Source of the DNA: Treponema sp.
Lineage (GTDB): Bacteria > Spirochaetota > Spirochaetia > Treponematales > Breznakiellaceae
DNA: 47,969 nt
Assembly: GCA_031258505.1 (NCBI GenBank)
Contig: JAIRMT010000013.1
Span: forward strand, 1-47,969
Direction of reading: 5' to 3'
Both the position numbers and the translations under genes were made by a program. Shown here piece by piece: positions 28,194-43,443 of the stretch (positions within the stretch are counted from its first letter, which is position 1; each line of letters starts with the position of its first letter). Under the pieces are notes generated by a model. That model saw only the letters and a program-made list of their open reading frames with translations. It did not search any database and was not told the DNA's origin.

Positions 28194-28257
28194 TCATTAA
28201 ACGGTGGTTCAGCAACTGGAACCTGAGCTTGCCGAAGGGTCAGTCGTTTCAAGCGGC

Positions 28258-28318
28258 TTAAGATTTTTTATAAAAAATCTTAAAATCTATTGACACTCCA
28301 TTTTTTATAATATATATT
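28258..28318 (+). promoter_or_regulatory. Perfect 26-bp palindrome plus sigma70-like promoter (copy B)
   Basis: TTAAGATTTTTTATAAAAAATCTTAA at 28258-28283. TTGACA at 28290-28295, a 17-nt spacer, and TATATT at 28313-28318. Confidence 0.55.
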
Positions 28319-28357
28319 CTTAGTAAATCAGTGGGTATTATAAGCGAAGGAGCTTTT

Positions 28358-28564
28358 ATGTCAGAACTAAGTACAAGCGCCGCGCCAAAGGGCCTGAGCG
28401 TTGACAAAGACTCGGCGCTGTCCATTCATTTTGACTGGCACACTCTGCTCCCACTCGCCTCGGTCGCATCAAGGTACTGCATACTGCACGTTGGTTGTGT
28501 CAACGTACCGTACCAAGGTTCTACCGTGGTTCATCTAGTTCAACTACTAGGAATTAAGGAGTGA
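28358..28564 (+). pseudogene. Degenerate, frameshifted 5' fragment of the permease gene. Its stop abuts the SBP start.
   Basis: MSELSTSAAPKGLSVDKDSALSIHFDW matches the full-length gene. Indels then shift the frame after ...PLASVA. TGA at 28562-28564 precedes the ATG at 28568. Confidence 0.75.
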
Positions 28565-28567
28565 ATC

Positions 28568-29599
28568 ATGAAAAAGATGCTATGTTCTTTTCTGGTTCTG
28601 TCGGTTCTTGCGGGTAGCCTATGGGCAAGCGGCAAGAAAGATTCAGCAAGTTCGGGTAGCGCGGCAGCTTCCGAACCAGCCCTGTCAGGGAAAAAGGTAA
28701 TTGTGGCGGATGCGAATTCCACCCACCACCTCAACCTCTATGTGGCTTATGAAAAGGGGCTGTTCACCAAGCGCGGTCTTGAGGTGGAAATCCAGCAGAC
28801 CAGTTCCGGGGTTGCCGCAGTGGTAGGCGGGGAAGCGGACATCGTGTTTAATTGCCCCACCGGAGTCATTACGCCTATCGCCAAAGGGCAAAACATCACC
28901 ATCATCGGTCAGGTGAAAATTCCTTGCACTTCCGTACTGGTCGTCCCGGCTGACTCGCCTTACAAAACGCCGGCTGACCTCAAGGATCTGCAAATCGCCG
29001 GGCTGTCTACCACCTGCTGCGCCGTGGTGATTATCCGGGATGCCCTTCAGGAGCAATACAATACCGAGTTTGAACTGGTAACACTAGCTCCGGCTGCGGC
29101 GATACAGGCCCTTGAAGCCGGGCAGGTGAAGGGCGCGATCCTTGAGGAACCTTTTGTCGCTCTGGCTCTGCTCCAGAAAGATGCCAATGGCGAGGCAACA
29201 TACAAGACGCTTTTTGACGGCACTTCCGATGCGGACGGCGACGGCAATAACGACGCGAACCTTGCTGGGGTTAATCCTCCCTGCCGGACTATCAACGCCA
29301 ACACCAGCTTTGTGGCCTCCCGCGAAAGCGATGCGAAAGCCTTTATTGAGGCCATCGCTGAAGCAGACCAGCTTATCCTGGCAAATCCGGTCGCCCCGGA
29401 CATCGTGGACATTGCCGCCAAATACGTCAGCGTTGACCGGCAGGCAATCATCAACAGCAACCCGAAACTAGGCTTTACCACCCAGCTTGATACAGCCGGC
29501 CTCATCGGTTACGCCGATGCCCTGGTAAAACTGGGAACCATCGACCGGAATCCGGGCGAGGCCCTGTTTGCCCCGCAGTTTAAGGGAATCACCTGGTAG
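28568..29599 (+). CDS. ABC transporter substrate-binding protein, NMT1/SsuA/TauA-like (NitT/TauT family)
   Basis: 343 aa with a signal peptide and AAGGAG SD. It is followed by a matching permease and ATPase. Confidence 0.8.
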   Translation: MKKMLCSFLVLSVLAGSLWASGKKDSASSGSAAASEPALSGKKVIVADANSTHHLNLYVAYEKGLFTKRGLEVEIQQTSSGVAAVVGGEADIVFNCPTGVITPIAKGQNITIIGQVKIPCTSVLVVPADSPYKTPADLKDLQIAGLSTTCCAVVIIRDALQEQYNTEFELVTLAPAAAIQALEAGQVKGAILEEPFVALALLQKDANGEATYKTLFDGTSDADGDGNNDANLAGVNPPCRTINANTSFVASRESDAKAFIEAIAEADQLILANPVAPDIVDIAAKYVSVDRQAIINSNPKLGFTTQLDTAGLIGYADALVKLGTIDRNPGEALFAPQFKGITW

Positions 29600-29638
29600 A
29601 GCAATCCGCAGGGCTGCCATTAGAAAAGGAGATGAAAA

Positions 29639-30508
29639 ATGAGAGCTAAAAATAGCGGCCTTGCATTTTTTGGAGAAGAAACCATGACTGATTACGAGAC
29701 AAAAGGTATCCGCCGGGTCTTGCTTGAACTCGGCGGCTTCCTCAAAAATTCCTTGGGGAATTTTTTCTCCCCAGAATTTTTGTGCGTTTTAATACCATTG
29801 CTCCTGCTCTGGGAATTCCTGCCTCGCTGGGGAGTGCTACCCGAAGGACTTGTCCCCAGCCTTTCAACAGTAGTGGCGCGTTTCTGGTATATGCTCTGGC
29901 ACAAACAGCTTGTCCTACACATCGGTATCAGCATGGGGCGTTTCTTTACGGCTTTCGGCATAGCCGTTGTTTTGGCGGTTCCCATCGGCCTCTTGATGGG
30001 CTGGAATCTTAAAATCCGCGCCTTTGTACTGCCCCTCTGGCAGTTACTCTCGCCCATACCACCGCCAGCCTGGGTTCCCATGACAATCATCTTTTTCGGT
30101 ATCGGATCAAAAATGCACATCTTCCTCATGTTCATCGGGATTTTTTATCCCGTGCTGTTTAACACCTACCAAGGAATCAAAGACACCGACCCTCGCTACC
30201 TCGCTTCGGCCCGAGTCTTCGGAGCCAGCGAATTCACCCTGCTGCGGAAAGTCTATTTTTGGCACGCTTTCGGTTCCATCATCATGAGCCTCAAGACTGG
30301 CGTCGCAATGGGGCTGGTGATGCTGCTCATCGGCGAATCCTACGGCGGGCGTTACGGCATTGGTTATCTTTTGGGGCAGGCAAAAGATTATTTTGTCATT
30401 CCCGAAATGATGGTCTGTATGGCAATCCTCGGCTGGATTGGCTGGTTCCTTATCGAAATTCTCAAATACATCGAGATAAAACTTGCGGTGTGGAAAGTGG
30501 GGAGATAG
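29639..30508 (+). CDS. ABC transporter permease (NitT/TauT family, SsuC/TauC-like)
   Basis: Polytopic BPD-transporter-type protein. An alternative start is at 29684 (MTDYETKG). Confidence 0.85.
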   Translation: MRAKNSGLAFFGEETMTDYETKGIRRVLLELGGFLKNSLGNFFSPEFLCVLIPLLLLWEFLPRWGVLPEGLVPSLSTVVARFWYMLWHKQLVLHIGISMGRFFTAFGIAVVLAVPIGLLMGWNLKIRAFVLPLWQLLSPIPPPAWVPMTIIFFGIGSKMHIFLMFIGIFYPVLFNTYQGIKDTDPRYLASARVFGASEFTLLRKVYFWHAFGSIIMSLKTGVAMGLVMLLIGESYGGRYGIGYLLGQAKDYFVIPEMMVCMAILGWIGWFLIEILKYIEIKLAVWKVGR

Positions 30509-30515
30509 GCGCGAC

Positions 30516-31421
30516 ATGATTGAAGCAAAAAGCATCGGCAAATTTTTTTCAGTTATAAACGAGAAGGGAATCGCCGAGGGGCTTACGGCAGTGTTAAACG
30601 TGTCCCTCACCATTCCTGACGGTAAAATCGTTTCGCTTCTGGGACCATCCGGCTGCGGCAAGTCAACGTTTCTGGAAATCCTGGCTGGATTGCAAGCGCC
30701 CACTGACGGCACGATTCACATAGACGGCAAGCTGGTGCTGGAACCGCTGCCCGCAACACGCAAAGAGCAAATCGCCTACAGACGGCGTTACCGGTTTATC
30801 TCTCCCCTTGCCAACGGCGTGTTCCGCGACCACCCCAAGCATGACATCGCCATGATATTTCAGGATTACGCAGTTTTCCCCTGGATGACGGCGAGCCAAA
30901 ACGTGGAGTTCGCGCTCAAACTGCGCAACGCCGGAAGAACAGGACCAGCCCGGCTCAAACGGGCAGAACTCACCGAGAAGGCGCGCTTCTACTTACACAA
31001 AGTAGGCTTGAGCAGCTTCGCCAATAAGTACCCATCTCAACTTTCAGGCGGTATGCGCCAGCGCCTTGCTCTTGCCCGCGCCCTTTCGGTGGAACCAAAA
31101 ATTATTTTGATGGACGAGCCATTCGCAGCAGTGGACGCATTAACCCGCGAAAAATTGCAGGACGAATTACTACGACTCTGGAACGAGATAACGCCATCTC
31201 CGATTACCATTATACTTGTTACCCACGAAGTGCAGGAGGCAGTGTACCTTTCCGACGAGGTGATTGTCTTTTCACCAGGACCGGGAACTATCCGCAATCG
31301 AATCCCCATTGAGACCAAACGCCCCAGAGCTAGAACCGATTCGACGCTGGTAGAAATTCAGGAGCGTATTTTCGCCATGTTTCAATATGACCTTAATCAG
31401 GAGGCAGATTATTCAATATGA
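30516..31421 (+). CDS. ABC transporter ATP-binding protein (SsuB/TauB-like)
   Basis: Start at 30516 ([11 protein letters not shown]). Walker [10 protein letters not shown], signature LSGGMRQR and Walker [12 protein letters not shown] are present. Confidence 0.9.
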
Positions 31422-32374
31422 GTGTTAATCTTACGGATAGTCGTGGAAAAATCTATAGCAATATCACCGAAGCGAGGGGAAATACGCCGCTGGTAAAACT
31501 GGCGAAACTCGGCTTGGGACTTCCGGCAACCGTGCTTGCCAAAGTGGAATCTTTTAATCCTATGAATAGCGTCAAGTGTCGTATTGGCGCGGCTATGCTG
31601 GACGCCGCTGAACGGGACGGTAAACTCAAACCCAGCGGTATAGTGATTGAGCCGACCAGCGGCAATACCGGCATAGGGCTTGCTTTTGCCTGTGCCGCCA
31701 GAGGCTATAAACTTGTTCTTACCATGCCGGAAACAATGTCGGTTGAACGACGCAAGCTGGCCCAAATGCTAGGCGCAGATGTGGTGCTGACCAGCGGCAA
31801 AGACGGCATGAAGGGCGCCATGCGTAAAGCCGAAGAACTGGTAAGCCAGACGCCCGGAAGTTTCATGCCGCTGCAATTTGACAACCCTGCCAATCCCGAG
31901 GCGCACCGCCGCACCACCGCTGAGGAAATCTGGGCTGACACTGCTGGAAACGTGGATATCTTTGTCGCCGGAGTGGGAACTGGCGGAACCATCACTGGCG
32001 TGGGCGAGGTGCTGAAAAAGCGCAAGAACAACGTGAAAATAATCGCTGTGGAGCCTGACGCATCTCCGGTTCTTTCAGGCGGTTTGCCCGGACCCCACCG
32101 CATACAGGGTATCGGGGCGGGCTTTATCCCCAAAGTGTTGAACCGTTCCATCATTGACGAGATTGTGCGCGTTACCAACGAGGACGCAATCATCACCGCC
32201 CGCAGGGTTGCCCGTATGGAAGGCATACTCGTTGGCATTTCCGCAGGAGCTGCAGTGTGGGCCGCTCTGCAAATCGCCGCGCAGCCGGAAAATAACGGAA
32301 AAAATATCGTGGTTATTCTCCCCGATTCAGGGGAGCGGTATCTGTCAACACAGCTTTCTGACCTGGAGGTATGA
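31418..32374 (+). CDS. cysK: Cysteine synthase A paralogue
   Basis: 318 aa with NPMNSVKCR (PLP lysine), TSGNTG and GTGGTITG. Its ATG overlaps the ATPase stop (ATGA). Confidence 0.92.
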
Positions 32375-32375
32375 A

Positions 32376-32831
32376 TTGAAAAGCCTTGTTTTTCTCTTTC
32401 TTGCGATTTTCGTTACAGCCTGCTCATCGCGGCAAGAACTTGACGACCCGCCAATCATCACATCGGCGAGTTATCAGCATACCTTGTACAACGGCAGGGG
32501 ACAAAGCATTGACGCAAGAGCGGCAAAAGAAGATGCCCCAATCGCCGTTACCTATTATACGTCGGAAGCTGATTATGATGCAGACCAAAATGGTTTCTCC
32601 CAAGCGCCAAGCGAAGTCGGCCTCTACTACGCGCGAATCCGACGACCAGAAGGCAACGGGTACAAACAGGGAAGGGACATCAAGGTTGAGTATCGTATTC
32701 AAAAAGCGCTGCAAGCGCCGGAAGTTTTATCTGGCGCGAATCAGCAGTCTACAGACAATGGAGTATTGTCTACAGACAACGGCTCATTGTCTACAGACAA
32801 CGGAGTATTGTCTACAGACAATGGAGCGTAG
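32376..32831 (+). CDS. Small lipoprotein with C-terminal STDNG[V/S]L heptad repeats
   Basis: An in-frame TTG at 32376 lies 5 nt after GGAGG. The N-terminus (M)KSLVFLFLAIFVTAC has a lipobox. The upstream part of track ORF 32154.. lies inside cysK. Confidence 0.65.
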   Translation: MKSLVFLFLAIFVTACSSRQELDDPPIITSASYQHTLYNGRGQSIDARAAKEDAPIAVTYYTSEADYDADQNGFSQAPSEVGLYYARIRRPEGNGYKQGRDIKVEYRIQKALQAPEVLSGANQQSTDNGVLSTDNGSLSTDNGVLSTDNGA

Positions 32832-32930
32832 TCTGTAGACTATGGAGCGTAGTCTGTAGACTATGGAGCGTAGTCTGTAGACTATGAGGCGTAGTCTGTA
32901 GACTATGAGGCGTAGTCTGTAGACTATGAC
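32747..32930. repeat. 21-bp tandem repeat, about 9 units in two subfamilies
   Basis: Four GTCTACAGACAAyGG... units (coding) are followed by five GTCTGTAGACTATGrrGCGTA units (non-coding). The junction holds the lipoprotein stop codon. Confidence 0.92.
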
Positions 32931-32951
32931 AGGAGGAAAACTTTTAAGACT

Positions 32952-33881
32952 ATGAATATGCTTGATTTAATCGGGAATACCCCGCTGGTTGAACTTAAAA
33001 AAATCTCCGCTGAACTTAATGGCGTGTCGATACATGCTAAGGCGGAGTTCCGCAATCCTTCTGGTTCCGTCAAGGATCGGGCGGCAAAAGCCATGCTCCT
33101 TGACGGCATTGAATCCGGCAAACTATGTCCCGGAAAGACCATCATCGACGCCTCAAGCGGCAACACGGGTATTGCCTACGCCATTTTAGGAGCAATCTTG
33201 GGCTATCCAGTAAGAATATATCTTCCGGCAAACGCCAGTTGGGAACGAAAAGCCTTCATCGCCTGCTGTGGAACAGCCGTTGTGGAGACCAATGCCCTGG
33301 AAAGCTCCGATGGCGCGTATCTGGCCGCAAAAGCCGAAGCGGAATCCCAAGCAGATAAATACTTCTGGCCTGACCAGTACAACAACGATGCTAACTGGAA
33401 AGCCCACTACCATACCACTGGTGTTGAAATATGGGAACAGACAGAGGGCAAAATTACTCACTTTATTACTGGCATGGGTACATCAGGAACATTCATGGGA
33501 ACTTCTCGAAGGCTCAAGGAGTACAACAAAAGCATTGAGGCTGTGGCAGTACAGCCTGATTCGCCCTTCCACGGCATTGAAGGAACAAAGCACATGGCCA
33601 GTTCCATTAAACCGGGATTTTACGATGAAACATTCCCCGACCGTTTTGTCATGGTCAATACTGAGGCGGCCTATGCCATGACTCGCAGACTTGTCCGTGA
33701 TGAAGGTCTTTTCGTGGGAATCAGTTCCGGCGCAAACGTGCAGGCTGCCCTTGACCTGGGGCGCACCTTGCCCCCAGGTTCGCTCATTGTTACCATGTTA
33801 TGCGATTCGGGCTTCCGCTATCTTTCGGATGCGTTCTGGAACATACCAGTTGAACTCAAAGGTCATGGAGAAGGAATATGA
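32952..33881 (+). CDS. cysM: CysM-type cysteine synthase (probably sulfur-carrier-protein dependent)
   Basis: 309 aa with NPSGSVKDR and SSGNTG. It is translationally coupled (ATGA) to the JAMM-CysO gene and followed by moeZ, as in the mycobacterial CysM/CysO/Mec/MoeZ system. Confidence 0.85.
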   Translation: MNMLDLIGNTPLVELKKISAELNGVSIHAKAEFRNPSGSVKDRAAKAMLLDGIESGKLCPGKTIIDASSGNTGIAYAILGAILGYPVRIYLPANASWERKAFIACCGTAVVETNALESSDGAYLAAKAEAESQADKYFWPDQYNNDANWKAHYHTTGVEIWEQTEGKITHFITGMGTSGTFMGTSRRLKEYNKSIEAVAVQPDSPFHGIEGTKHMASSIKPGFYDETFPDRFVMVNTEAAYAMTRRLVRDEGLFVGISSGANVQAALDLGRTLPPGSLIVTMLCDSGFRYLSDAFWNIPVELKGHGEGI

Positions 33882-34579
33882 TTCAGTTGTCCGCTCAATG
33901 TTTAGACGCAATCCGTACAGAAGGTGAAAAGGCGTACCCGAATGAGTGCTGCGGCGCTTTGTTAGGCGTAATTTTTGATGATGACAAGCGCCTAGTTCAA
34001 AGCATCTTTCCCATTACCAATGCCCGCGAGCAAACGGAACAGTACCATCGCTTTGAAATAGAACCGGAAGATTTGCTGCGGGCTGAAAAAGAGGCAAGGT
34101 CGCAAAATAGGGACGTGCTTGGATTTTACCATTCCCACCCGGATCATCCGGCGCGTCCCTCAGAATACGACCGGAACAACGCCTTTCCATTTTATTCGTA
34201 TCTGATTGTATCGGTTGAGAAAAAGAAGGCGGCGGCTCTGACAAGCTGGCGGCTTTCCGACGACCGGAAAGAAATTTTTGAAGAAGTAGTTAAGGAGGAA
34301 ACTATGGCGGTAATCATTCAAATCCCGACAGCCCTGCGGGGTTTTACGGAACGGAAACATGAAGTTGAGGTTGAAGGCCAGACCGTAGGTGAGGCAATCA
34401 ATGCCCTTGCCGGAAAGTACCCGGACTTGCGGCAGCATCTTTATCAAGGTGAAAATTTGCGTTCGTTTATCAACGTGTTTGTAGGCGATACCAACATTAA
34501 GAAACTTGAAGGGCTTGATACAAAACTGTCAGGTAACGAAACAGTCATGCTGGTTCCAGCAATCGCTGGCGGCGCCTAA
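33878..34579 (+). CDS. In-frame fusion of a JAMM/MPN+ metalloprotease (Mec-like) and a ThiS/MoaD-type sulfur carrier (CysO-like)
   Basis: The N-terminal 142 aa carry ECCGALLG and HSHPDHPARPSEYD (the JAMM motif). The C-terminal 91 aa form a beta-grasp-sized domain ending AIAGGA. No stop codon lies between the domains. Confidence 0.85.
   Translation: MIQLSAQCLDAIRTEGEKAYPNECCGALLGVIFDDDKRLVQSIFPITNAREQTEQYHRFEIEPEDLLRAEKEARSQNRDVLGFYHSHPDHPARPSEYDRNNAFPFYSYLIVSVEKKKAAALTSWRLSDDRKEIFEEVVKEETMAVIIQIPTALRGFTERKHEVEVEGQTVGEAINALAGKYPDLRQHLYQGENLRSFINVFVGDTNIKKLEGLDTKLSGNETVMLVPAIAGGA
34304..34579 (+). CDS. cysO: Possible independently translated CysO-like sulfur carrier (internal start)
   Basis: The ATG at 34304 is in frame and preceded by AAGGAGG at 34292-34298 (5-nt spacing). 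The product MAVIIQIP...VPAIAGGA is 91 aa. Confidence 0.5.
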   Translation: MAVIIQIPTALRGFTERKHEVEVEGQTVGEAINALAGKYPDLRQHLYQGENLRSFINVFVGDTNIKKLEGLDTKLSGNETVMLVPAIAGGA

Positions 34580-34580
34580 C

Positions 34581-35762
34581 ATGAACTCTATTATAGAAGA
34601 AAGCCGCCTCATTAGTCTCACCAACGAGGAGATTGCCCGCTACAGCCGCCATCTTCTCTTGCTAGAAGTCGGCATTGAGGGACAGAAACGGCTCAAGGCG
34701 GCGAAGGTCTTGCTTGTGGGAACTGGCGGCCTCGGCGCTCCACTTGCGCTTTACCTTGCCGCCAGTGGCGTGGGGACTATCGGCATCGTGGACTTTGACT
34801 TTGTGGAGGAATCAAACCTTCAGCGACAGGTGATCCATTCCACACGGGATGTGGGTCGTCCTAAAGTCGCGTCAGCGCAGGAGCGCATCAAGGGCATAAA
34901 TCCAAAGTGCAATGTGATAACGTATAACACTATGCTCAACAGCGGCAACGCCCTTGACATCATCAAAGAATACGACATTGTTGCTGACGGTACTGACAAT
35001 TACCAGACCCGCTACCTTGTGAACGATGCCTGCGTGTTATTGGGAAAGCCCAATGTGTATGGCTCGGTATTTCAATTTGAAGGGCAGGTTTCGGTTTTCT
35101 TCGCCAAAGAAGGACCTTGCTACCGCTGCCTGTACCCGGAACCGCCGCCGCCGGGACTCGTACCCTCCTGCGCCGAAGGCGGCGTTGTCGGGGTATTGCC
35201 CGGCATCATCGGCTGTATTCAGGCAAACGAAGTAATCAAACTCATTACCGGTTTCCGGGAAGAGGATGGCGCAAGCCTTATCGGGCGGCTGCTTCTTTTT
35301 GACGCATGGAAAATGAAGTTTCGGGAACTCGTTCTGGACAAAGAAAGCGCCTGCCCTATCTGCGGCGCAAACCCCACAATCCATGAGTTGATTGATTACG
35401 AGCAATTCTGCGGCCTTAAAAAAAGCGATGAGGCGGAACCCATAGAAACCATCAGCGCAACAGAACTGAAATCCCGGCTGGATGCGGGCGTTCCAGTACA
35501 AATCATCGACATCCGGGAACCTCACGAGCGGGCAATCGCAAAGTTTCCCAACGCAAAGTCAATCCCTCTGGGGCAGATGACCCGCCGCATTGACGAGTTT
35601 GACCCAGCGATTGACTCGGTATTCATCTGTAAAATTGGACAGCGGAGTGTTTTCGCCATTCACGCCTTACGCGAGGCTGGCTACAAGGGCCGGCTGCTCA
35701 ACTTGAAAGACGGTGTGAACGGCTGGGCGCGGGAAGTGGACAGGCTGCTGCCTGTTTATTAA
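34581..35762 (+). CDS. moeZ: MoeZ/MoeB-like E1 adenylyltransferase with C-terminal rhodanese domain
   Basis: Start at 34581, 1 nt after the CysO stop. It has the nucleotide loop VGTGGLGAP, CxxC pairs (CYRC, CPIC) and a rhodanese active-site loop (CKIGQRS). Confidence 0.88.
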   Translation: MNSIIEESRLISLTNEEIARYSRHLLLLEVGIEGQKRLKAAKVLLVGTGGLGAPLALYLAASGVGTIGIVDFDFVEESNLQRQVIHSTRDVGRPKVASAQERIKGINPKCNVITYNTMLNSGNALDIIKEYDIVADGTDNYQTRYLVNDACVLLGKPNVYGSVFQFEGQVSVFFAKEGPCYRCLYPEPPPPGLVPSCAEGGVVGVLPGIIGCIQANEVIKLITGFREEDGASLIGRLLLFDAWKMKFRELVLDKESACPICGANPTIHELIDYEQFCGLKKSDEAEPIETISATELKSRLDAGVPVQIIDIREPHERAIAKFPNAKSIPLGQMTRRIDEFDPAIDSVFICKIGQRSVFAIHALREAGYKGRLLNLKDGVNGWAREVDRLLPVY

Positions 35763-35780
35763 ATAGAAAGGAGAATGATT

Positions 35781-36734
35781 ATGGCAGAAAAGACAATCAA
35801 CGCATTGGGACGGAGCGCGGCATATCAGCTTGCGAATGTTACAAAAACACCGCCCCAGTTTGGCTCCCTTACCCCTAAATGGCTTACAAGGGTACTGGAA
35901 TTCAAAGGACTTGAAGCGGGTATTTACCGGGTTAATCGGGTCGCTGAGGGCGAAACGCCTCTTGACGTTCTGTGCAGCCAGGACCCGAAAAAAGTTGAGA
36001 TTCCCCAGGGCTTCGTGGATTACGTTTCAAAACCGCGGGAGTATCAACTCAGCTCAATATCCACGATTATCAATGTGGACACTAAAGTTTCAGATGTCTA
36101 CAGTTCGCCGTATGACCAGACTCAGGAACAGATAAAGCTGGCAGTTGAAAGCCTCAAGGAGCGGCAGGAGAGTCAAATCATCAACAGCGATGATTACGGC
36201 CTCCTCAAAAACGCCGTGGACAGTCAGCGTATACAAACCCGCTACGGCCGCCCCATGCCCGACGACTTGGATGAACTCATCACCAAAGTATGGAAAGAGC
36301 CGAGTTTCTTCCTGGCTCATCCTCGCGCTATCGCCGCCTTTGAGCGGGAATGCACCCGTCGGGGCGTCCCGCCGGTAACGGTAACTATTGCCGGAGGAAT
36401 TTTTATCGCGTGGCGGGGCATTCCTCTTATTCCCACGGACAAGCTCTTTGTGGACGGCCTCAAGAACCCCAAAGCCAAAACCGGCAAGACCAATATCCTG
36501 TTAGTCCGTACCGGTGAAGCCAAACGCGGTGTTGTGGGCCTCTACCAGGCTGGCGTTCCGGGCGAACAGAGTCGCGGTCTTTCGGTGCGTTTTCGGGGCA
36601 TTGACGATAATGGCGTTGCCTCGTACCTCCTCTCGGTGTACTGCTCCGCAGCCATTCTCGCTGATGATGCTGTGGCCGTGCTGGAAGACGTGGAGGTAGG
36701 AGATTACTATGAATATACCCAACAGCCGGTTTAG
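35781..36734 (+). CDS. Family 2A encapsulin shell protein (SrpI-like, HK97-fold nanocompartment)
   Basis: Recalled SrpI-family motifs are present: GIYRVNRV, PREYQLSSIST, KVSDVYSSPYDQ, KVWKEPSFFLAHPRAIAAFERECTRRGVPP, WRGIPLIPTDK and ILLVRTGEAKRGVVGLYQ. The ATG at 35781 has AAGGAG 7 nt upstream. Confidence 0.8.
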   Translation: MAEKTINALGRSAAYQLANVTKTPPQFGSLTPKWLTRVLEFKGLEAGIYRVNRVAEGETPLDVLCSQDPKKVEIPQGFVDYVSKPREYQLSSISTIINVDTKVSDVYSSPYDQTQEQIKLAVESLKERQESQIINSDDYGLLKNAVDSQRIQTRYGRPMPDDLDELITKVWKEPSFFLAHPRAIAAFERECTRRGVPPVTVTIAGGIFIAWRGIPLIPTDKLFVDGLKNPKAKTGKTNILLVRTGEAKRGVVGLYQAGVPGEQSRGLSVRFRGIDDNGVASYLLSVYCSAAILADDAVAVLEDVEVGDYYEYTQQPV

Positions 36735-38184
36735 TTTTTCAGAGTGGGGCTTGCCGTCTGCGGCAGAGATAGCCGCGTTAGCCGCGAACTATTTCCCTGA
36801 ATTCGGCAATGCGCCCGCAGGCAGGTCCCCGCAGCCAGTGTCAGAGGTCATTTCGCCTAACGCCTATTCGCCGGTTGTGCTTCCCAAAGAAAAAAAGCTG
36901 GAGCATAGCGGTTCCGCAGCGCGTCAAGCCAGCGGCGCCAGACTCTACGCCAAAACACAGGGCGTTTCAGTCGGTCATCGTTCCCTTGATTCCATACGCG
37001 CTGATTTCCCCATTCTTGCGGAAAAGGTATCAGGCGGCCATGACCTGGTGTGGTTTGATAACGCGGCTACTACCCAGCGACCCAGGCAGGTAATTGAGCG
37101 CCTGTCCTATTATTATGAACACGAGAATTCCAATGTCCATCGAGGAGCGCATGAACTGGCGGCACGTTCTACCAACGCCTACGAGGAAGCCAGGGCGAAG
37201 ATTGCCTGCTTTTTAGGCGCGCCCTCGCCGGACAATATTGTGTATGTACGGGGAACTACTGAAGGGATAAATCTTGTGGCACAGGCTTATGTCAAACCGC
37301 TGCTCAAAGCTGGGGACGAGATAATTCTTACCATGCTGGAACACCACGCCAACATTGTCCCCTGGCAGCTTATCGCCGCTGAAACTGGAGCGGTTCTGCG
37401 GGTTGCGCCGATTGACCAAAGCGGCCAGCTCATTCTTTCGGAGTACGAAAAACTCTTTAACAGCCGCACCCGCTTTGCCGCAGTAACCCATGTGTCAAAC
37501 GCTTTAGGCACGATTGCGCCAGTGGAGGAACTGGTACACATCGCTCATGCCCGCGGAGTGCGAATCCTCATTGACGGGGCGCAGTCTGTGTCGCATATTC
37601 CGGTGAATGTCGCGGCTCTGGACACTGATTTTTTCGTGTTTTCGGGGCATAAGATTTTCGGGCCAACAGGTATAGGGGCGCTTTATGGTAAAAGCGATGT
37701 TCTGGAAGCAGCCCAGCCATACCAAGGTGGAGGTAACATGATTTTCGATGTTACCTTTGAGCGTACCCTCTATCACAAGCCGCCCGCGAAATTTGAGGCA
37801 GGTACTGGCAGCATTGCGGACGCGGTGGGTCTGGGCGCGGCGCTGGACTATGTTTCGGAGATTGGCATACAGAATATCGCTGCATGGGAACACGAACTCC
37901 TGCAATACGGCATGAAAGAACTTGCGAAGATTCCCGGCCTGCGTCTCATTGGAACAGCCGCTGAAAAGGCGAGCGTCCTCTCCTTCGTGCTTGAAGGACA
38001 CAGCCTTGAGGAAGTAGGTAAACATCTCTCAAGTCGGGGAATCGCCGTCCGCGCCGGGCATCACTGCGCCCAGCCAGTACACCGATTCTTTGGCCTTGAA
38101 GGAACCGTTCGCCCCTCTGTTGCCTTGTACAACACGTTGGGCGAGATTGACAAGCTTGTAACGGCAGTAGGAGAGCTGGTATGA
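36709..38184 (+). CDS. Cysteine desulfurase (SufS/CsdA-like) with N-terminal disordered cargo-loading extension
   Basis: The catalytic domain starts around residue 95 (FPILAEK...VWFDNAATTQRP) and includes HHANIVPW and SGHKIFGPTGIGALYG. The Pro/Ala/Ser-rich N-terminal ~90 aa contain AEIAALAANYFPEF. AGGAG SD. Confidence 0.88.
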   Translation: MNIPNSRFSFSEWGLPSAAEIAALAANYFPEFGNAPAGRSPQPVSEVISPNAYSPVVLPKEKKLEHSGSAARQASGARLYAKTQGVSVGHRSLDSIRADFPILAEKVSGGHDLVWFDNAATTQRPRQVIERLSYYYEHENSNVHRGAHELAARSTNAYEEARAKIACFLGAPSPDNIVYVRGTTEGINLVAQAYVKPLLKAGDEIILTMLEHHANIVPWQLIAAETGAVLRVAPIDQSGQLILSEYEKLFNSRTRFAAVTHVSNALGTIAPVEELVHIAHARGVRILIDGAQSVSHIPVNVAALDTDFFVFSGHKIFGPTGIGALYGKSDVLEAAQPYQGGGNMIFDVTFERTLYHKPPAKFEAGTGSIADAVGLGAALDYVSEIGIQNIAAWEHELLQYGMKELAKIPGLRLIGTAAEKASVLSFVLEGHSLEEVGKHLSSRGIAVRAGHHCAQPVHRFFGLEGTVRPSVALYNTLGEIDKLVTAVGELV

Positions 38185-39395
38185 AGCAAAAAAAATTATG
38201 TGCCGACCGTATCGGCGATCAGACGCTGTCAATTCACGCCGGTGAATTTCCCGATCCGCTTACCGGCGCTTCCGCGCCAAACCTGGTCATGTCCACTACC
38301 TTTGTGGTAGAGGCTGACACAGGATTTTCCGTCGAGGGTATGGGTGAAAACGATCCCTTTGTGTATACCAGGTGGGGCAACCCTACCATCAGACAGCTTG
38401 AGGAAAAACTCACTGCCTTGGAGGGTTCGGAGACTGCTGTGGCCTTTGCAAGTGGCATGGCTGCTGCCACTGCCCTGCTGCTGCATACACTCAAAGCTGG
38501 GGACCACGCGGTGGTGAGCGATGTTACCTACGCCGCAGTGTCGGAGGCTGCCAATGAACTGTTTCCGGGTTTGGGGTTTCAGATTAGTAAAGTTGATACT
38601 TCAGATTTAGACGCACTGCGTGAGGCGGTGCGGCCTAATACCCGGCTCATTTATATCGAAACCCCCTGTAACCCGCTCTTGCGCTTGACGGATATTGCGG
38701 CTGCCGCTGATATAGCGCATAAGGCAAATGCCCTTCTTGCGGTGGATTCAACTTTTGCCACCCCCGCTGGAACTAAACCGCTTGCGTTGGGGGCGGACTT
38801 CGTTATCCATTCCCTAACCAAGTATCTAGGCGGCCACGGCGACGCGCTGGGCGGCGCGATTCTGGGGAGAGCCGCAGACCTTGCGCCGCTTCGCAAAAAA
38901 ACCGCAGTCCGTCTGGGTGGAACCCTAAGCCCCTTTAATGCCTGGCTGATTCTCCGGGGGCTTGCCACTTTTCCCCTACGCATGAAGGCTCACGAGGAAA
39001 ACGCGCTCAAGGTAGCCGCATTTCTTGAAAGCCATCCAAAAGTGGTAAAACTGATCTACCCTGGCCTACCGTCTCACCCCCAGCATGAACTCGCCCAGCG
39101 GCAGATGAAGAATTTTTCCGGCATGGTAACCTTTCAAACAGAAAAAGGCAAAGAAACCGCCATTGCCCTGGCGAAAAAGCTGAAGATAATCCATTACGCA
39201 GTTTCCCTGGGTCATCACCGCTCGTTGATTTTTTATCTTAACAGCGAAGAGCTTTTAAAAACCTCGTTCAGGCTTGATACCCCAAAGCAGCTTGAATCGT
39301 GGAAAGCATTTGCTGGTGAGGGGATTTTTCGTCTTTCTGTGGGGCTGGAAAACGCGGAAGACATAATCGCCGATTTAGAACAAGCAATCGGCTGA
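38181..39395 (+). CDS. Cys/Met-metabolism PLP enzyme (cystathionine gamma-lyase/synthase, methionine gamma-lyase or O-acyl-homoserine sulfhydrylase family)
   Basis: 404 aa with YTRWGNPT, AVDSTFATP and the PLP lysine in HSLTKYLGGHGD. ATGA overlap with the desulfurase gene. Confidence 0.85.
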   Translation: MKQKKLCADRIGDQTLSIHAGEFPDPLTGASAPNLVMSTTFVVEADTGFSVEGMGENDPFVYTRWGNPTIRQLEEKLTALEGSETAVAFASGMAAATALLLHTLKAGDHAVVSDVTYAAVSEAANELFPGLGFQISKVDTSDLDALREAVRPNTRLIYIETPCNPLLRLTDIAAAADIAHKANALLAVDSTFATPAGTKPLALGADFVIHSLTKYLGGHGDALGGAILGRAADLAPLRKKTAVRLGGTLSPFNAWLILRGLATFPLRMKAHEENALKVAAFLESHPKVVKLIYPGLPSHPQHELAQRQMKNFSGMVTFQTEKGKETAIALAKKLKIIHYAVSLGHHRSLIFYLNSEELLKTSFRLDTPKQLESWKAFAGEGIFRLSVGLENAEDIIADLEQAIG

Positions 39396-39404
39396 GGAGT
39401 AACT

Positions 39405-40373
39405 ATGCAACACGAAACCAATACAAAAGTAAAACATCTGGTTGACATACTGTCACGGAGTTACCGGGATCATGCGGAAATTATAAAAGTCGATGCGGAA
39501 AATCAGCTTAACCGGAGTGTCATCATTGATATTCTTGAGCGGCTGCGCAAACTTATTTTTCCCGGCTATTTTGGCAAGAAACATCTTTCCGCTGACTTGA
39601 TAGAATATTACGCTGGAGATTTGCTTGAAGAAGTTATCCATGATCTCACCCCGGAGCTGGCTAAAGCACTGTGTCATCTTGATGACACGGCAGTTTCCCC
39701 GGCGGAAAAGGCAAGCAGCGGTTTATTTTTTCAAGAACAGGCCAGTGATATTGCCTTTACGTTTTTGTCAAGATTGCCGGAAATCCGGGAATATCTTGTC
39801 TCCGATGTTTCCGCCGCCTTTGACGGCGACCCTGCGGCGTTCAGCAAAGATGAAATAATCTCGTCCTATCCGGGAATATACGCTATCATGGTCTACCGTC
39901 TGGCACATGCGCTATACGAACTTGATGTCCCGCTCATTCCCCGAATTATGACCGAACATGCGCATAGCGTTACTGGCATCGACATTCACCCCGGCGCGGT
40001 AATCGGACATCATTTCTTCATTGACCACGGAACCGGAATTGTCATTGGAGAGACAACGATCATCGGTAACCATGTAAAAATATACCAGGGCGTAACTCTG
40101 GGCGGGCTTTCCACCAGAGGCGGTCAGGCTCTTAAAGGAACTAAACGCCATCCCACCATTGAAGATCATGTAACGATCTATTCAGGCGCTTCCATATTCG
40201 GCGGCGCTACGATTATCGGTGAGGGAGTTGTAATCGGCAGCAGCGCCTTTATCACCAAGTCGGTACCGGAAAAAACTAGGGTTAGCGTGAAAAATCTGGA
40301 AATGCAGTACAAGGTAGACCAGAGCGCCCGCGCCGAGCTTGTCCAGGACGGCTTTTGGGATTGGGTGATATAG
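39405..40373 (+). CDS. cysE: Serine O-acetyltransferase (long form)
   Basis: Hexapeptide-repeat core GIDIHPGAVIGHHFFIDHGTGIVIGETTIIGNHVKIYQGVTLGG. GAGGAG SD. Confidence 0.88.
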   Translation: MQHETNTKVKHLVDILSRSYRDHAEIIKVDAENQLNRSVIIDILERLRKLIFPGYFGKKHLSADLIEYYAGDLLEEVIHDLTPELAKALCHLDDTAVSPAEKASSGLFFQEQASDIAFTFLSRLPEIREYLVSDVSAAFDGDPAAFSKDEIISSYPGIYAIMVYRLAHALYELDVPLIPRIMTEHAHSVTGIDIHPGAVIGHHFFIDHGTGIVIGETTIIGNHVKIYQGVTLGGLSTRGGQALKGTKRHPTIEDHVTIYSGASIFGGATIIGEGVVIGSSAFITKSVPEKTRVSVKNLEMQYKVDQSARAELVQDGFWDWVI

Positions 40374-40376: not shown

Positions 40377-40834
40377 TCAAGCGATTCAAGGTTTTTTATA
40401 AAAAACCTTGAAACCTATTGACACTTGATGTTTTACAAGATACATTCTTAGTAAATCAGTAGGTATTATAAGCAAAGGAGCTTTTATGTCGGAACTAAGT
40501 ATAAGCACTGCGTCAAATGGCCTAAGCGTTGGCAAAGACTCGGCGCTGTCCATCCATTTTGACTGGCGCACTCTGATCCCACTCGTCTCGGTCGCCTTTA
40601 CCCAGGTACTGCATACCGCGCTGCCAGTAGCGTCAACGTATCGCACCAAGGTTCTACCGTGGTTCACCTGGTTCAACGTCGTTGCTATCGGGGTACTGGC
40701 AATACTCGCGGTGGTGAGTCTCTTTAACAGCCGGTATCGGGAACGGTTCACGTATAAATCATGGTTTCTGGGGGTAGCGTTTCTTCTGCTCAACTTGTAT
40801 AACCTCATCACCGTCAAGTTCGACCTGATTCCCA
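40377..40834 (+). repeat. Copy C of the dispersed direct repeat (the functional copy, continuous with the full-length permease)
   Basis: It aligns with 21311-21745 (copy A) and with copy B from about 28250 to 28545. Confidence 0.85.
40387..40446 (+). promoter_or_regulatory. Perfect 24-bp palindrome plus sigma70-like promoter (copy C)
   Basis: CAAGGTTTTTTATAAAAAACCTTG at 40387-40410. TTGACA at 40418-40423, a 17-nt spacer, and TACATT at 40441-40446. AAGGAG at 40475-40480. Confidence 0.55.
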
Positions 40835-41502
40835 GCCTCTATTTCCCATCGCCGGAACGGATCGTGTATGTATTTCTCACAGACTGGTTCTTTATACTGC
40901 GCTGCCTAGTCTACTCGCTCCGTTTGTTGCTGGGCGGCTTCTTCCTCGGCGCGCTGCTTGGGGTGCTAACCGGTACGCTCATCGGCTGGAGCCAGCGCTG
41001 GAACTACTGGATCATGCCCTGTATCCGAATCGTGGGACCGATTCCATCAACCGCCTGGATACCCATCGCGCTGGTGGTCTTCACAAAAGCGACCGATGCA
41101 GCGCTGTTCCTCATCGCCCTGGGAGTCTGGTTCCCCACAACGGTACTCACCAGTTCAGGCATCCTCAATGTGCGGAAAAGTTACTTCGAGGTTTCAAGCA
41201 CCTTGGGAGCGAGCAATCTGCGGAATGTGCTTTCCATCGCCCTACCCGGCGCCGCGCCAAACATCTTCGCGGGCCTGTTTAACGGCACATCGTCGTCATT
41301 CCTAACCCTTATGGCCGCTGAAATGATCGGCTGTAAGTTCGGCATTGGCTGGTACATCAACTGGCAGAGGGAAACCATGGCGTATTCACAGGTGTACGCA
41401 GCGCTCATCGTGATTGCCATAACCTTTTCACTCCTCATTAACCTCCAGTTCAAGATTCGCAATCGCGTCCTGAGTTGGCAGAAAGGCACAATTCGGTGGT
41501 AG
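40486..41502 (+). CDS. ABC transporter permease (NitT/TauT family) with an extra N-terminal membrane extension of about 110 aa
   Basis: 338 aa. The C-terminal ~230 aa resemble permease 29639..30508. The N-terminal extension is the part duplicated in copies A and B. Confidence 0.88.
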   Translation: MSELSISTASNGLSVGKDSALSIHFDWRTLIPLVSVAFTQVLHTALPVASTYRTKVLPWFTWFNVVAIGVLAILAVVSLFNSRYRERFTYKSWFLGVAFLLLNLYNLITVKFDLIPSLYFPSPERIVYVFLTDWFFILRCLVYSLRLLLGGFFLGALLGVLTGTLIGWSQRWNYWIMPCIRIVGPIPSTAWIPIALVVFTKATDAALFLIALGVWFPTTVLTSSGILNVRKSYFEVSSTLGASNLRNVLSIALPGAAPNIFAGLFNGTSSSFLTLMAAEMIGCKFGIGWYINWQRETMAYSQVYAALIVIAITFSLLINLQFKIRNRVLSWQKGTIRW

Positions 41503-41510
41503 GTGAAAAT

Positions 41511-42305
41511 ATGCAAACAGCAGTACATGGCGGAACCATACGGATCAACGGTGTAACTAAAACCTTTCCTCAAGAAGGCGCGGCTGATATTACCGTGCTG
41601 GATAACATCAGCCTTGTTTTCAAAAGCGGCGAGTTTATTTCTCTCATCGGCCCATCCGGATGCGGGAAGTCAACCCTGCTGCGGCTCATCGCTGGACTTA
41701 CCCAAAGCGATAGCGGCTCACTTTTTTTGGATGACGCCGAGATACAAGCGCCGGGACATGAGCGAGGGCTGGTGTTTCAGGACCCAACCCTGTTCCCGTG
41801 GAAAACCATCTGGGAGAACATCGCCTTCGGGCTGCGGGCGCGTGGGGTCTATCGTGAAGAAAAACAGAACATTCCCGGGTTTTTCAAGCTCGTGGGGCTT
41901 GAGGGCTTTGAGAAGTCCTATCCTCACCACCTTTCCGGCGGTATGGCGCAGAGGGCGTCGCTGGCCAGGACCCTCATCAATAACCCAAAAGCGCTCCTGC
42001 TTGACGAGCCTCTGGGCGCTCTTGACGCCTTTACCCGCATGAATATGCAGGACGAGATTCTCAAGATATGGGAAGAACGTCGAATGACTATGGTCATGGT
42101 TACGCATGATGTTGATGAGGCGATTTACATGGCTGACCGCATCGTGGTCATGTCAGCGCGCCCGGCTAAGATTGAAAAGATGATTACAGTGGAGATTGGC
42201 CGTCCGCGACAGCGCGACGACCCGGACTTCCTCGACCTGCGAGCGAAGATACTACAAATCCTGCACTTCGCGGGCGCAAAGCAGGAACCGGAGTACAACT
42301 TGTGA
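41511..42305 (+). CDS. ABC transporter ATP-binding protein (SsuB/TauB-like)
   Basis: Start at 41511 (MQTAVHGG). Walker [10 protein letters not shown], signature LSGGMAQR and Walker B LLLDEPLGALD are present. Confidence 0.9.
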   Translation: MQTAVHGGTIRINGVTKTFPQEGAADITVLDNISLVFKSGEFISLIGPSGCGKSTLLRLIAGLTQSDSGSLFLDDAEIQAPGHERGLVFQDPTLFPWKTIWENIAFGLRARGVYREEKQNIPGFFKLVGLEGFEKSYPHHLSGGMAQRASLARTLINNPKALLLDEPLGALDAFTRMNMQDEILKIWEERRMTMVMVTHDVDEAIYMADRIVVMSARPAKIEKMITVEIGRPRQRDDPDFLDLRAKILQILHFAGAKQEPEYNL

Positions 42306-42354
42306 AAAAACCGTCGTTGACGGAGAACATCTTTTTAAGGAGAGGATATAAACT

Positions 42355-43380
42355 ATGAAAAAAGCTATCCTTTTGCTTTCATTGGTTTGCGTGGCGGTAC
42401 TTAGCGTCCACGCAAGAGGTCAGAATCAGGGAACTTCCGCTGCTGCAGCGGAAGACCCGAACTATGTGGTCAAGATCGGACGGTCAGTCTCCGTCGGTCT
42501 TTGTACTTCACCTTTCGTCATCGCCGAGCATTTCGGTTACTACGAGGAAGAGGGACTCAAGTGGGATTCTGTCGCTATTGAGACAGGTCAGGCCAACCTC
42601 CTGCTCACCACCGGCGCGGTTGATGTTACCAACAACCTTTTGGCCACGCTCATTCAGCCCATTGCCAATGGTCTTGACGTGAAGATTCCCCTGGGCATAC
42701 ACACGGGCTGCCAGAAGGTACTGGTACGCGTTGATTCTGATATACAAACGCCCGCAGACCTTCGCGGCAAGCGAATCGGCACAACCGGCATGGCATCCAG
42801 CGGCACGGTCATCACCCAGCGCTATCTCGCGGAACTAGGCATTGGCGTTACCGCCGATAACCTTGAGGTTGAGTGGCTGATCTATCAGCAGGCAGACCTC
42901 CCGTTGGCGCTTGAGCGGGGACAGGTTGACGCCATCGCGCTTGGAGACCCGACCGCTTACATCGTTGAGCAGGAAGGAAAGGCTAGGGTAATCATCAATC
43001 AGGCTACAGACGACTACCTCAAGGACGAATTCTGCTGTGTGGTAGTTGCTTCAGCCAACTTTGTGAAGGATCATCCCGAAGCTGCGGCAAAGTTCACCCG
43101 CGCTATTCAGAAAGCCGCAGCCTTTGTGCAGGAGAACCCTGATGAGACCGCCCGTATTCTTGATGAGCGAAAGTATGTGGCCGGCGATCCAGAGGTAAAC
43201 GCCGCCATACTCAAGACCTACAACTTTAGGGCTTCGGTGAGCGAGGCGGAAGTGGCGATTTCCCGTAATACGCGCGACCTCCAGAGAATCAATCTGGTGG
43301 ACAGCGACGTTGACCCCGACGCCCTTACGCGGAACGTCTTCATTGCCCTGCCCGGTGTGCCGGATTCACTGTATAAGTGA
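42355..43380 (+). CDS. ABC transporter substrate-binding protein (NMT1/SsuA-like)
   Basis: 341 aa with a signal peptide (MKKAILLLSLVCVAVLSVHA) and GGAGAGG SD. Confidence 0.8.
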   Translation: MKKAILLLSLVCVAVLSVHARGQNQGTSAAAAEDPNYVVKIGRSVSVGLCTSPFVIAEHFGYYEEEGLKWDSVAIETGQANLLLTTGAVDVTNNLLATLIQPIANGLDVKIPLGIHTGCQKVLVRVDSDIQTPADLRGKRIGTTGMASSGTVITQRYLAELGIGVTADNLEVEWLIYQQADLPLALERGQVDAIALGDPTAYIVEQEGKARVIINQATDDYLKDEFCCVVVASANFVKDHPEAAAKFTRAIQKAAAFVQENPDETARILDERKYVAGDPEVNAAILKTYNFRASVSEAEVAISRNTRDLQRINLVDSDVDPDALTRNVFIALPGVPDSLYK

Positions 43381-43439: not shown

Positions 43440-43443
43440 CGTA

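Follow-up and report, generated by a model that had tools for sequence, protein, structure and literature searches.

The stretch of DNA analysed here (the window) comprises 47,969 nucleotides (nt) of a bacterium labelled Treponema sp. (Breznakiellaceae; contig JAIRMT010000013.1 of assembly GCA_031258505.1) and is contig C118 of a 2.06-Mb metagenome-assembled genome (MAG) that is 69% complete. Positions 28568 to 40373 hold a run of twelve co-directional open reading frames (ORFs) on the + strand, in which an encapsulin shell and its cysteine desulfurase stand directly behind a set of genes for a ubiquitin-like sulfur carrier. The original prediction, made from the sequence alone, had read the run as a single supra-operon for sulfur acquisition, carriage and compartmentation. 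Pfam and NCBIfam profile searches found all twelve genes and bore out their earlier identifications by domain calls. The window also contains a methionine importer cassette, two SsuA-like importers, three cysteine synthases and a CysK-headed nitrogenase-like operon, and resembles a sulfur-salvage island; the run looks like the centre of a sulfur-scavenging island in a termite-gut bacterium of the Treponema family. The third cysteine synthase, proposed earlier at 8636–9583 (− strand), is real (cysK equivalog, 447 bits). No 3′-phosphoadenosine 5′-phosphosulfate (PAPS) reductase above cut-off was found in the window's genome or in its congener G067, nor any sulfite reductase domain in the window's genome, but as these MAGs are incomplete the absences are weak evidence.

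The run opens with an ABC importer, consisting of an NMT1/SsuA-like substrate-binding lipoprotein (28568–29599; NMT1 2.7e-17, SsuA_fam 67.7 bits, under the cut-off of 163.5), a permease (29639–30508; BPD_transp_1) and an ATPase (30516–31421), for which ATG 30516 is the likely start and TTG 30483 the alternative. CysK, cysteine synthase A (31418–32374; TIGR01139 cysK equivalog, 452.7 bits against a cut-off of 350.95), and a small lipoprotein of 151 aa (32376, a TTG start, to 32831; lipobox VTAC) come next. They are followed by a CysM-like cysteine synthase B (32952–33881; PALP 9e-69; cysM 341.8 bits, under the cut-off of 394.2), a single ORF joining a JAMM (Prok-JAB) domain to a CysO-like ThiS domain (33878–34579; Prok-JAB 5e-27; PF02597 40.3 bits against 22.5), a MoeZ/Uba4-like E1 with a C-terminal rhodanese domain (34581–35762; ThiF 6e-82, Rhodanese 3e-11), an SrpI-like Family 2A encapsulin shell (Enc, 35781–36734; PF19307 8e-96; NF041162 equivalog 488.9 bits against 380) and a SufS-type cysteine desulfurase cargo (CyD, 36709–38184; Aminotran_5 domain from residue 114; SufS subfamily 523 bits against 475). 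The last two genes encode a gamma-family pyridoxal phosphate (PLP) enzyme (38181–39395; Cys_Met_Meta_PP, of the cystathionine gamma-synthase/methionine gamma-lyase type, reaching no equivalog cut-off) and a serine O-acetyltransferase (SAT, cysE; 39405–40373; EpsC-type SAT 151.1 bits against 150, cysE 164 against 211).

The translations include SVKDR as the signature of the PLP lysine. For the CysM-like enzyme, enteric CysM structures (2JC3, 2BHT) are the closest solved ones, and M. tuberculosis CysM (3DWG) matches too. Its gene is translationally coupled through an ATGA overlap to that of the JAMM/Mec-like domain, which covers residues 1–142 and carries the HxHx7SxxD motif HSHPDHPARPSEYD. The CysO-like carrier ends in PAIAGG-A, one Ala past the Gly-Gly. 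In every linked locus of the survey described below the carrier either ends in PAIAGG plus at least one further residue or makes up the N-terminal part of a fusion with the E1, so that JAMM cleavage after the Gly-Gly appears obligatory. The in-frame JAMM-CysO fusion arises from a 2-nt difference that removes a stop codon, the genes being separate in three relatives (L085, L086 and L002); an assembly slip was considered and ruled out, since the same fusion recurs with 97% identity in an independent scaffold from another sample (L141). An internal Shine-Dalgarno sequence and ATG at 34304 mean that a free carrier would remain possible. Just before this internal start, where the JAMM domain ends, there is a terminator-like stem-loop (34253–34281; CTTTCCG-ACGAC-CGGAAAG, then AAATTTTTGA), which is conserved in L085. 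In the E1, the rhodanese domain spans residues ~271–393 with the active loop CKIGQRS; the protein scores 457 bits with the MoeZ equivalog, under its cut-off of 647, and its best solved relative is Uba4 (6YUB). An upstream start at TTG 34506 was replaced by ATG 34581. The best NCBIfam names for JAMM, carrier and E1 are desampylase, SAMP1 and SAMP-activating E1, all under their cut-offs.

The shell protein has 317 aa and the Family 2B model matches its ends only. Together with the 2A equivalog match, this places it in Family 2A, without the cNMP-binding insertion of 2B. It is 89% identical to a Leadbettera azotonutricia protein named family 2A encapsulin, and 82–97% identical to the best 119 of about 8,000 matches, mostly labelled as termite-gut Treponema/Spirochaetia MAGs. 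CyD has a 113-aa N-terminal extension carrying GLPSAAEIAALAANYFPEF; in an alignment, EIAALAANYFPEF falls opposite ALARLANEFF in the classical cargos (LARLANEFF-type loading motif, PMC8049743). The cargo model NF041166 gives 772 bits against a cut-off of 800, with matches confined to model positions 218–622, consistent with a short N-terminus. A SufS-type cargo with an N-terminal loading motif next to the shell is the Family 2A arrangement; assembly into a T=1 shell, loading of the cargo and deposition of elemental sulfur are predicted. SAT also has an N-terminal extension, of ~130 aa. The gamma-PLP enzyme best matches methionine gamma-lyase and cystathionine gamma-synthase models and was considered as a MetY-type partner of the carrier, but it is only 33% identical to MetY-like enzymes (that of L019, itself a full-length match to TIGR01326, was the one compared) and has no MetY match above cut-off, so this role finds no support.

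The genes are packed tightly. The substrate-binding protein and permease genes are 39 nt apart, permease and ATPase 7 nt apart (or overlapping by 26 nt if the latter starts at TTG 30483), and ATPase and CysK overlap by 4 nt; the lipoprotein gene follows CysK after 1 nt and precedes CysM by 120 nt. CysM and JAMM overlap by 4 nt, JAMM-CysO and MoeZ are separated by 1 nt, and MoeZ and Enc by 18 nt (12 nt from ATG 35775). Enc and CyD overlap by 26 nt, CyD and the gamma-PLP gene by 4 nt, and SAT starts 9 nt beyond the latter. Shine-Dalgarno sequences precede 11 of the 12 starts. The earlier claim that all junctions are overlaps or gaps of at most 39 nt, except for one repeat-filled gap of 120 nt, therefore stands, while its count of four ATGA overlaps drops to three (31418, 33878 and 38181), as the ATGA at 32371 merely opens ATG-AAT-TGA. 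Such packing is normal for operons and unremarkable alone, yet it is kept in a second species of the genus (L117).

The 120-nt gap belongs to a 21-nt minisatellite (32747–32928), with four forward units (core GTCTACAGAC) inside the lipoprotein gene and five inverse units (core GTCTGTAGAC) filling the gap. As RNA, the repeats fold into a hairpin of ~180 nt (−107 kcal/mol, z = −10.9) with no adjacent U-tract. In L085, a 97% relative, only forward units are present, ~25 nt before cysM, and in the second species of the genus (G067, locus L117) there are no repeats and a 22-nt gap before cysM; the hairpin is thus recent and strain-specific. A promoter-like site was not found on the + strand of the gap. 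Intergenic minisatellites are frequent in this genus; the MoeZ-Enc spacer of L117, for example, has three tandem 47-nt units, compared with 18 nt in the window. The lipoprotein, for which a mechanical ORF at 32386–32838 was discarded as lying in the wrong frame, has a tail of STDNG(V/S)L heptads and no Pfam or NCBIfam match, and its single-sequence AlphaFold model was unusable (pLDDT 55). The mature protein may resemble a single Ig-like surface domain. Its homologues adjoin CysK in L002 and L117, and it travels with the importer-CysK block.

Upstream, a terminator-like hairpin with a T-run (28242–28268, + strand) ends a methionine importer/aminotransferase cassette. It is followed by an operator, a perfect 22-bp palindrome (AAGATTTTTTATAAAAAATCTT, 28260–28281), and a sigma-70-like promoter (TTGACA-17-TATATT, 28290–28318), both on the + strand. 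These form copy B of an operator/promoter module found three times in the window (copies A, B and C at 21327–21545, 28264–28482 and 40392–40610; 85–89% identity) and nowhere else in the genome. The module is 220–450 bp long and carries a permease 5′ end along; the same terminator-like element also precedes copy A (21306 onward). Copy C, 14 nt past the cysE stop, has its operator (AAGGTTTTTTATAAAAAACCTT) and promoter (TTGACA-17-TACATT) at 40388–40446 (+ strand) and leads into the second SsuA-like importer (permease, ATPase and substrate-binding protein; 40486–43380, + strand, from profile searches), an order shared by L085, L117 and L141. The run would be driven from copy B and is bracketed by two copies of one control region. 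Its leader contains a 68-codon relic of the permease 5′ end (28358–28564, + strand), the full-length version of which starts the permease gene at 40486; an Rfam search of the whole window gave no family, and hence no known riboswitch in this 250-nt leader. Operator and promoter directly precede the substrate-binding protein gene in G067. A pattern search found no operator palindrome at the corresponding loci of L. azotonutricia ZAS-9 and Treponema primitia ZAS-2, so it is specific to the window's genus. The twelve genes may form one transcription unit.

Comparison with close relatives indicates how the run was assembled. G067 (~88% nucleotide identity) keeps the same collinear order, which begins with the aminotransferase gene, continues across the twelve genes and takes in the second importer. 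In L085, however, the genes from the substrate-binding protein to CysK have been deleted, a permease fragment is joined to the 3′ part of the lipoprotein gene, and copy B is left directly before cysM as the sole promoter module upstream of it. L. azotonutricia has the importer-CysK-lipoprotein block on the other strand and SAT before the gamma-PLP gene, and a 94% relative has only CysM-JAB-ThiS-MoeZ-Enc-CyD, between unrelated genes. The run can thus be divided into three modules: importer-CysK-lipoprotein, an add-on of the window's genus; the core CysM-JAMM-CysO-MoeZ-Enc-CyD; and gamma-PLP plus SAT. The twelve-gene order recurs in G067, but as modules are lost or rearranged in other relatives, the supra-operon of the original prediction is a genus-level concatenation of separable units.

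We then asked how widely the core occurs. One genome per GTDB species was scanned with an alignment of seven encapsulin sequences, and the 10-kb flanks of the best 80 of at least 592 matches were annotated with the window's proteins (phmmer on stop-to-stop ORFs). A gene for a ThiF protein with a rhodanese domain lies immediately 5′ of the encapsulin gene in 26 of the 80 loci and within 8 kb in two more; in a further locus (L032) the module is cut by the contig end. A JAB protein and a ThiS-like carrier nearly always accompany it. The enzyme encoded before JAB is CysM in Spirochaetota, Desulfovibrio-like bacteria, Lentisphaerota, some Ruminococcus, Negativicutes, Propionibacterium and Verrucomicrobiota, and a MetY-like enzyme in Lachnospiraceae/Eubacteriales, Fibrobacter and Succinivibrionaceae. 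In a maximum-likelihood tree the linked encapsulins fall into one clade (28 of its 32 rows linked, SH-aLRT 97), bearing labels from ~nine phyla and coming throughout from termite, rumen or faecal samples. Separate linked cases outside it belong to Verrucomicrobiota, Negativicutes and Acidobacteriota, the last with a free rhodanese plus a convergent CysM-JAB-ThiS-MoeZ set; the remaining encapsulin clades have operons of the published Rhd-, SAT- and CysK-SAT- types. The check set in the original prediction, whether any other genome links an encapsulin and desulfurase with cysO and moeZ, clearly does not refute it: dozens do, and the pairing, far from being an oddity of one genome, is the rule in a whole gut-anaerobe clade of Family 2A encapsulins.

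Two loci illustrate the mobility of the core. On a Desulfovibrio-like contig it forms a six-gene block between unrelated housekeeping genes, and in Succinimonas an eight-gene set, MetY-like-JAB-(carrier-E1-Rhd)-Enc-CyD-SAT-ThiF-JAB, has housekeeping genes on both sides. Since the clade mixes ~nine phyla and the flanks are housekeeping genes typical of each lineage, the core block has been transferred horizontally in one piece. The linked clade has no stand-alone rhodanese of the kind seen in other operon types. In Acidobacteriota, the free rhodaneses encoded directly 5′ of Enc are similar to the whole length of the MoeZ rhodanese domain (E about 1e-16), and the E1 domain appears to replace the usual separate protein in this operon type. 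In MetY-type loci (L012, L015–L017, L019, L020, L023, L025 and L029) a second, rhodanese-less E1 and a second JAB are encoded after SAT, and the E1-rhodanese protein has the carrier as an N-terminal fusion, giving two sets of ubiquitin-like protein, E1 and JAMM.

Within the family, an encapsulin is present in 46 of 201 genomes. All 20 of the 20-kb regions fetched link it with CysM-JAB-ThiS-MoeZ, upstream in 18 and in the order Enc-CyD-SAT-CysM-JAB-ThiS-MoeZ in two. A search with MoeZ distinguished its orthologue, which has the rhodanese and is at least 71% identical, from a paralogue that lacks the rhodanese (~50% identity). Encapsulin and orthologue occur together in 41 genomes, encapsulin without orthologue in five, orthologue without encapsulin in seven, and neither in 148; each of the five encapsulin-only genomes is cut by a contig end within ~1 kb upstream. 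A Spirochaetaceae locus outside this sample (L007) has a 10-kb upstream flank with no carrier module. The carrier pathway can stand alone and the compartment practically never does in this lineage, which makes the dependence one-sided. One genome (G144, contig C4, 14410–15162 and 28166–28918) has two identical inverted CysM...CyD modules ~14 kb apart, a duplication or an assembly artefact.

Both halves of the core are known separately. Family 2A is exemplified by SrpI of Synechococcus elongatus, classical cargos having the LARLANEFF-type motif in a disordered N-terminal domain (PMC8049743), and by operons such as Rhd-AT-Enc-CD of Acinetobacter (PMC10836720) and Mmp1/Enc-CD of mycobacteria (PMC11659603). 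The window shares with such operons an SrpI-like shell without a cNMP domain, a SufS-type cargo directly 3′ with a short overlap and a disordered N-terminal domain bearing the LARLANEFF-type motif, a SAT gene, and a rhodanese domain directly 5′ of the shell. It differs in that this rhodanese is the C-terminal domain of an E1 rather than a free protein, of which the run has none; in the addition of a ThiS-like carrier, a JAMM peptidase and CysM (or MetY); in the shortness of the cargo's N-terminal domain (113 aa); and in its hosts, all of them strict anaerobes of the gut. None of the four operon types published for Family 2A (Enc and CD with or without R and AT) describes it. The CysM-JAB-ThiS-E1-Rhd operon has itself long been known, as type 4c of Iyer, Burroughs and Aravind 2006 (PMC1779556). 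The window has the same four kinds of protein as the CysO-CysM-Mec-MoeZ pathway of M. tuberculosis (PMC3227635), including an E1 rhodanese with an active-site cysteine, and also shares the translational coupling of CysM and JAMM genes. Unlike that pathway, the carrier ends in GG-Ala instead of GG, needs processing and is fused to JAMM; CysM is nearer to the enteric enzyme than to the O-phosphoserine enzyme, with SAT pointing to O-acetylserine; and MoeZ is part of the operon, the whole set being joined to an encapsulin.

Another relative is the thiocarboxylate-dependent HcyS-HcyD-HcyF-MetY homocysteine synthesis of Wolinella succinogenes (Krishnamoorthy and Begley 2011, cited in PMC5764234), in which the extra C-terminal Ala of the carrier is reportedly removed by a JAMM peptidase; its sulfur reportedly comes from sulfite reductase, and it has neither a rhodanese domain nor an encapsulin. 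The sister operons of Lachnospiraceae, Fibrobacter and Succinivibrionaceae resemble it in having a MetY-like enzyme in the place of CysM, whereas the window's gamma-PLP enzyme is not MetY-like. The literature searched contained no paper linking encapsulins with CysO, ThiF, adenylyltransferase or thiocarboxylate systems, and the top-ranked papers on MoeZ, MoeB, JAMM, MoaD and sulfur or ubiquitin-like carriers do not mention encapsulin; in their main texts, the main encapsulin surveys give rhodanese and SAT as the only accessory genes and do not mention anaerobes, and an RNA-seq paper on T. primitia has nothing on this locus. As far as this literature goes, the core is a previously undiscussed, horizontally mobile operon type of Family 2A desulfurase encapsulins.

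What might such an operon do? Desulfurase encapsulins were shown in 2021–2024 to store elemental sulfur (S0), with its retrieval and acceptor still open (PMC10836720, PMC11659603); the acceptor of Enc-CD sulfur has not been identified (PMC11659603), a rhodanese has been proposed to remobilize S0 (PMC10836720), and the sulfur source of MoeZR is unknown (PMC3227635). In the mechanism that we propose, the N-terminally tagged desulfurase would be packaged in the shell and turn cysteine into alanine and persulfide or S0, as its homologues do. JAMM would trim the residue after the carrier's Gly-Gly, as the invariable GG-X tails and E1 fusions suggest. MoeZ would adenylate the carrier, and its rhodanese cysteine would pass on sulfane sulfur to form the thiocarboxylate, in the manner known for MoeZ/Uba4 homologues. 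The sulfane sulfur for this step would be drawn from the compartment; this transfer we infer because the genes stay next to each other, the rhodanese domain stands where classical operons have a free rhodanese, the clade itself has no free one, and the two open questions fit each other. CysM would then condense the thiocarboxylate with O-acetylserine, the acceptor to which the operon's SAT points, and JAMM would free cysteine; in M. tuberculosis CysM condenses the thiocarboxylate with O-phosphoserine and Mec releases the product (PMC3227635). With CysK and SAT, the whole would make a store-and-retrieve cycle for cysteine sulfur. The relay from desulfurase or S0 through the MoeZ rhodanese and CysO to CysM, suggested in the original prediction, is a reasonable inference. 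Taken as a whole, a sulfur-island run whose mobile core joins a desulfurase shell to a MoeZ/CysO route in a store-and-retrieve cycle is our best explanation, to which we give a probability of roughly 0.55.

The least probable of the alternatives is that the trio of ubiquitin-like protein, E1 and JAMM serves another thio-metabolite or SAMP-like conjugation, while CysM uses thiosulfate or sulfide as in enteric bacteria. The SAMP-related NCBIfam names and the closeness to thiosulfate-using enteric CysM structures are in its favour, but we consider it very improbable, as the cysM stop overlaps the JAMM start, the operon is of the long-known type 4c (PMC1779556), whose M. tuberculosis member is biochemically a cysteine pathway, and in other lineages MetY takes over the position of CysM, as in the W. 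succinogenes homocysteine pathway. A separate matter is whether the run is one transcription unit. At least two transcripts (importer-CysK-lipoprotein and CysM...SAT), split or processed at the hairpin, are a real possibility, if not one that we favour, and so is a longer unit: with no terminator seen between the cysE stop and copy C, transcription may extend into the second importer, to 43380. The stability of the hairpin and the separability of the importer block in L085 and ZAS-9 speak for a split; the missing U-tract, the same gene order without repeats in G067, the lack of a promoter-like site in the gap and the presence of copy B as the sole promoter module upstream of cysM in L085 speak for continuity.

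Co-regulation offers a simpler account of the pairing. Both modules would help the cell when sulfur is limiting or redox stress sets in, and would sit behind one promoter without passing sulfur between them, the carrier being charged by free sulfide or a housekeeping desulfurase while the shell buffers cysteine. The window's genome does encode other Aminotran_5 desulfurase-like proteins (contigs C173 and C169), and classical operons also merely gather CysK and SAT beside Enc-CyD. We nevertheless regard this account as unlikely: the rhodanese-bearing gene has stayed directly 5′ of the shell through transfers over ~nine phyla, the free rhodanese of other operon types is missing from this clade, and in the family no encapsulin lacks the module save in the five genomes cut by contig ends, L007 being the exception outside that sample. 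Sulfur might also flow the other way, with the CysO/CysM route making cysteine for the encapsulated desulfurase, so that the operon loads sulfur (for example scavenged or toxic sulfide or sulfane sulfur) into the shell. Cysteine-making genes are indeed common neighbours of the shell, as CysK-SAT-Enc-CyD in Microcystis and Cyanobium and SAT-Enc-CyD in many Proteobacteria; the run includes SAT, and its CysM holds the position that CysK has in cyanobacterial srp operons. Feeding of the shell gives no role to the adjacency of rhodanese domain and shell, however, and still needs a sulfane donor for MoeZ, and we think it quite unlikely. It is compatible with retrieval, the two possibly being halves of one cycle.

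Several observations weigh against the store-and-retrieve explanation. The direction of flux, into or out of the shell, is not readable from sequence, and the opposite direction is equally compatible with the gene order, as is mere co-regulation. To take sulfur from cysteine and then make cysteine again would be futile, unless the cell stores and retrieves at different times or homocysteine is the product; this objection does not touch MetY-type operons, whose net reaction would shunt sulfur from cysteine to homocysteine. Carriers of the CysO type can reportedly be charged with free sulfide in vitro, according to work on M. tuberculosis and W. succinogenes. Relatives of the query are over-represented among the 80 loci, most Family 2A operons of other phyla have no carrier module, and the Fisher test for co-occurrence of encapsulin and MoeZ in the family (p = 8e-30) ignores phylogeny. 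Three of the seven orthologue-only genomes (G001, G119 and G191) truly lack a downstream encapsulin. A module without encapsulin, together with the many Family 2A operons without module, means that neither part strictly needs the other. In L. azotonutricia ZAS-9 two unrelated genes stand between MoeZ and Enc, which, like the orthologue-only genomes, suits co-regulation, and in the window the hairpin may mark the single site where the transcript could be stopped or cut.

A more specific form of the store-and-retrieve explanation, which we put forward tentatively and with the odds against it, is that in this clade the desulfurase encapsulin stores sulfane sulfur specifically for a ubiquitin-like carrier pathway: MoeZ would dock on the shell with its rhodanese domain, draw persulfide or S0 and charge the carrier, from which CysM or MetY would rebuild cysteine or homocysteine. 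If true, this would reveal what accepts the sulfur of Family 2A encapsulins and how it leaves them, and at the same time the donor of MoeZ-type E1s; it would also suggest that the free rhodanese, SAT and CysK of classical operons do the same job via sulfide. The conserved, horizontally spread operon names a concrete candidate partner for both the shell and the MoeZ-type E1. Its parts are small, soluble and reconstitutable in E. coli, and it is present in two spirochaetes from termite gut that are in culture, T. primitia ZAS-2 and L. azotonutricia ZAS-9. Strict anaerobes of termite gut and rumen hold a distinct clade of desulfurase encapsulins.

Some further features of the window and its relatives deserve mention. 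The permease 5′ end carried by the operator/promoter module spans 21327–21780, 28264–28564 and 40392–40834, being full-length only in copy C and reduced to 119 codons in copy A and 68 in copy B; A and B also share the 3′ end of a NifX-like gene. Recombination within the module seems to account for the insertion of cassettes. The operon at 3872–9583 (− strand) encodes CysK, a NifB-like radical SAM protein, two NifD/K-like proteins, very divergent and far under all nitrogenase cut-offs, and NifH; it is a nitrogenase-like system tied to a cysteine synthase, which we take to be possibly a sulfur salvage system like methylthio-alkane reductase. In G067 this operon directly follows the second importer on the same strand. 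Arrays of a 23-nt palindromic unit at 9658–10460 (34 copies) and 43443–43773 (14 copies) are reverse complements of each other and flank a 33-kb segment whose orientation is opposite to that in G067; the segment has probably been inverted between the arrays. In the two complete genomes of the family, probably those of ZAS-9 and ZAS-2 (G033:C1:635877–639678 and G046:C1:25358–33031), the rhodanese-less ThiF paralogue lies beside two PAPS-reductase-family genes, an arrangement suggestive of another sulfur-carrier operon, one tied to sulfate assimilation; the window's genome retains a rhodanese-less ThiF on contig C4, though it has no PAPS_reduct match above cut-off. Near the contig end, at 47840–47921, a perfect CTCCCGG heptamer is repeated 11.7 times.

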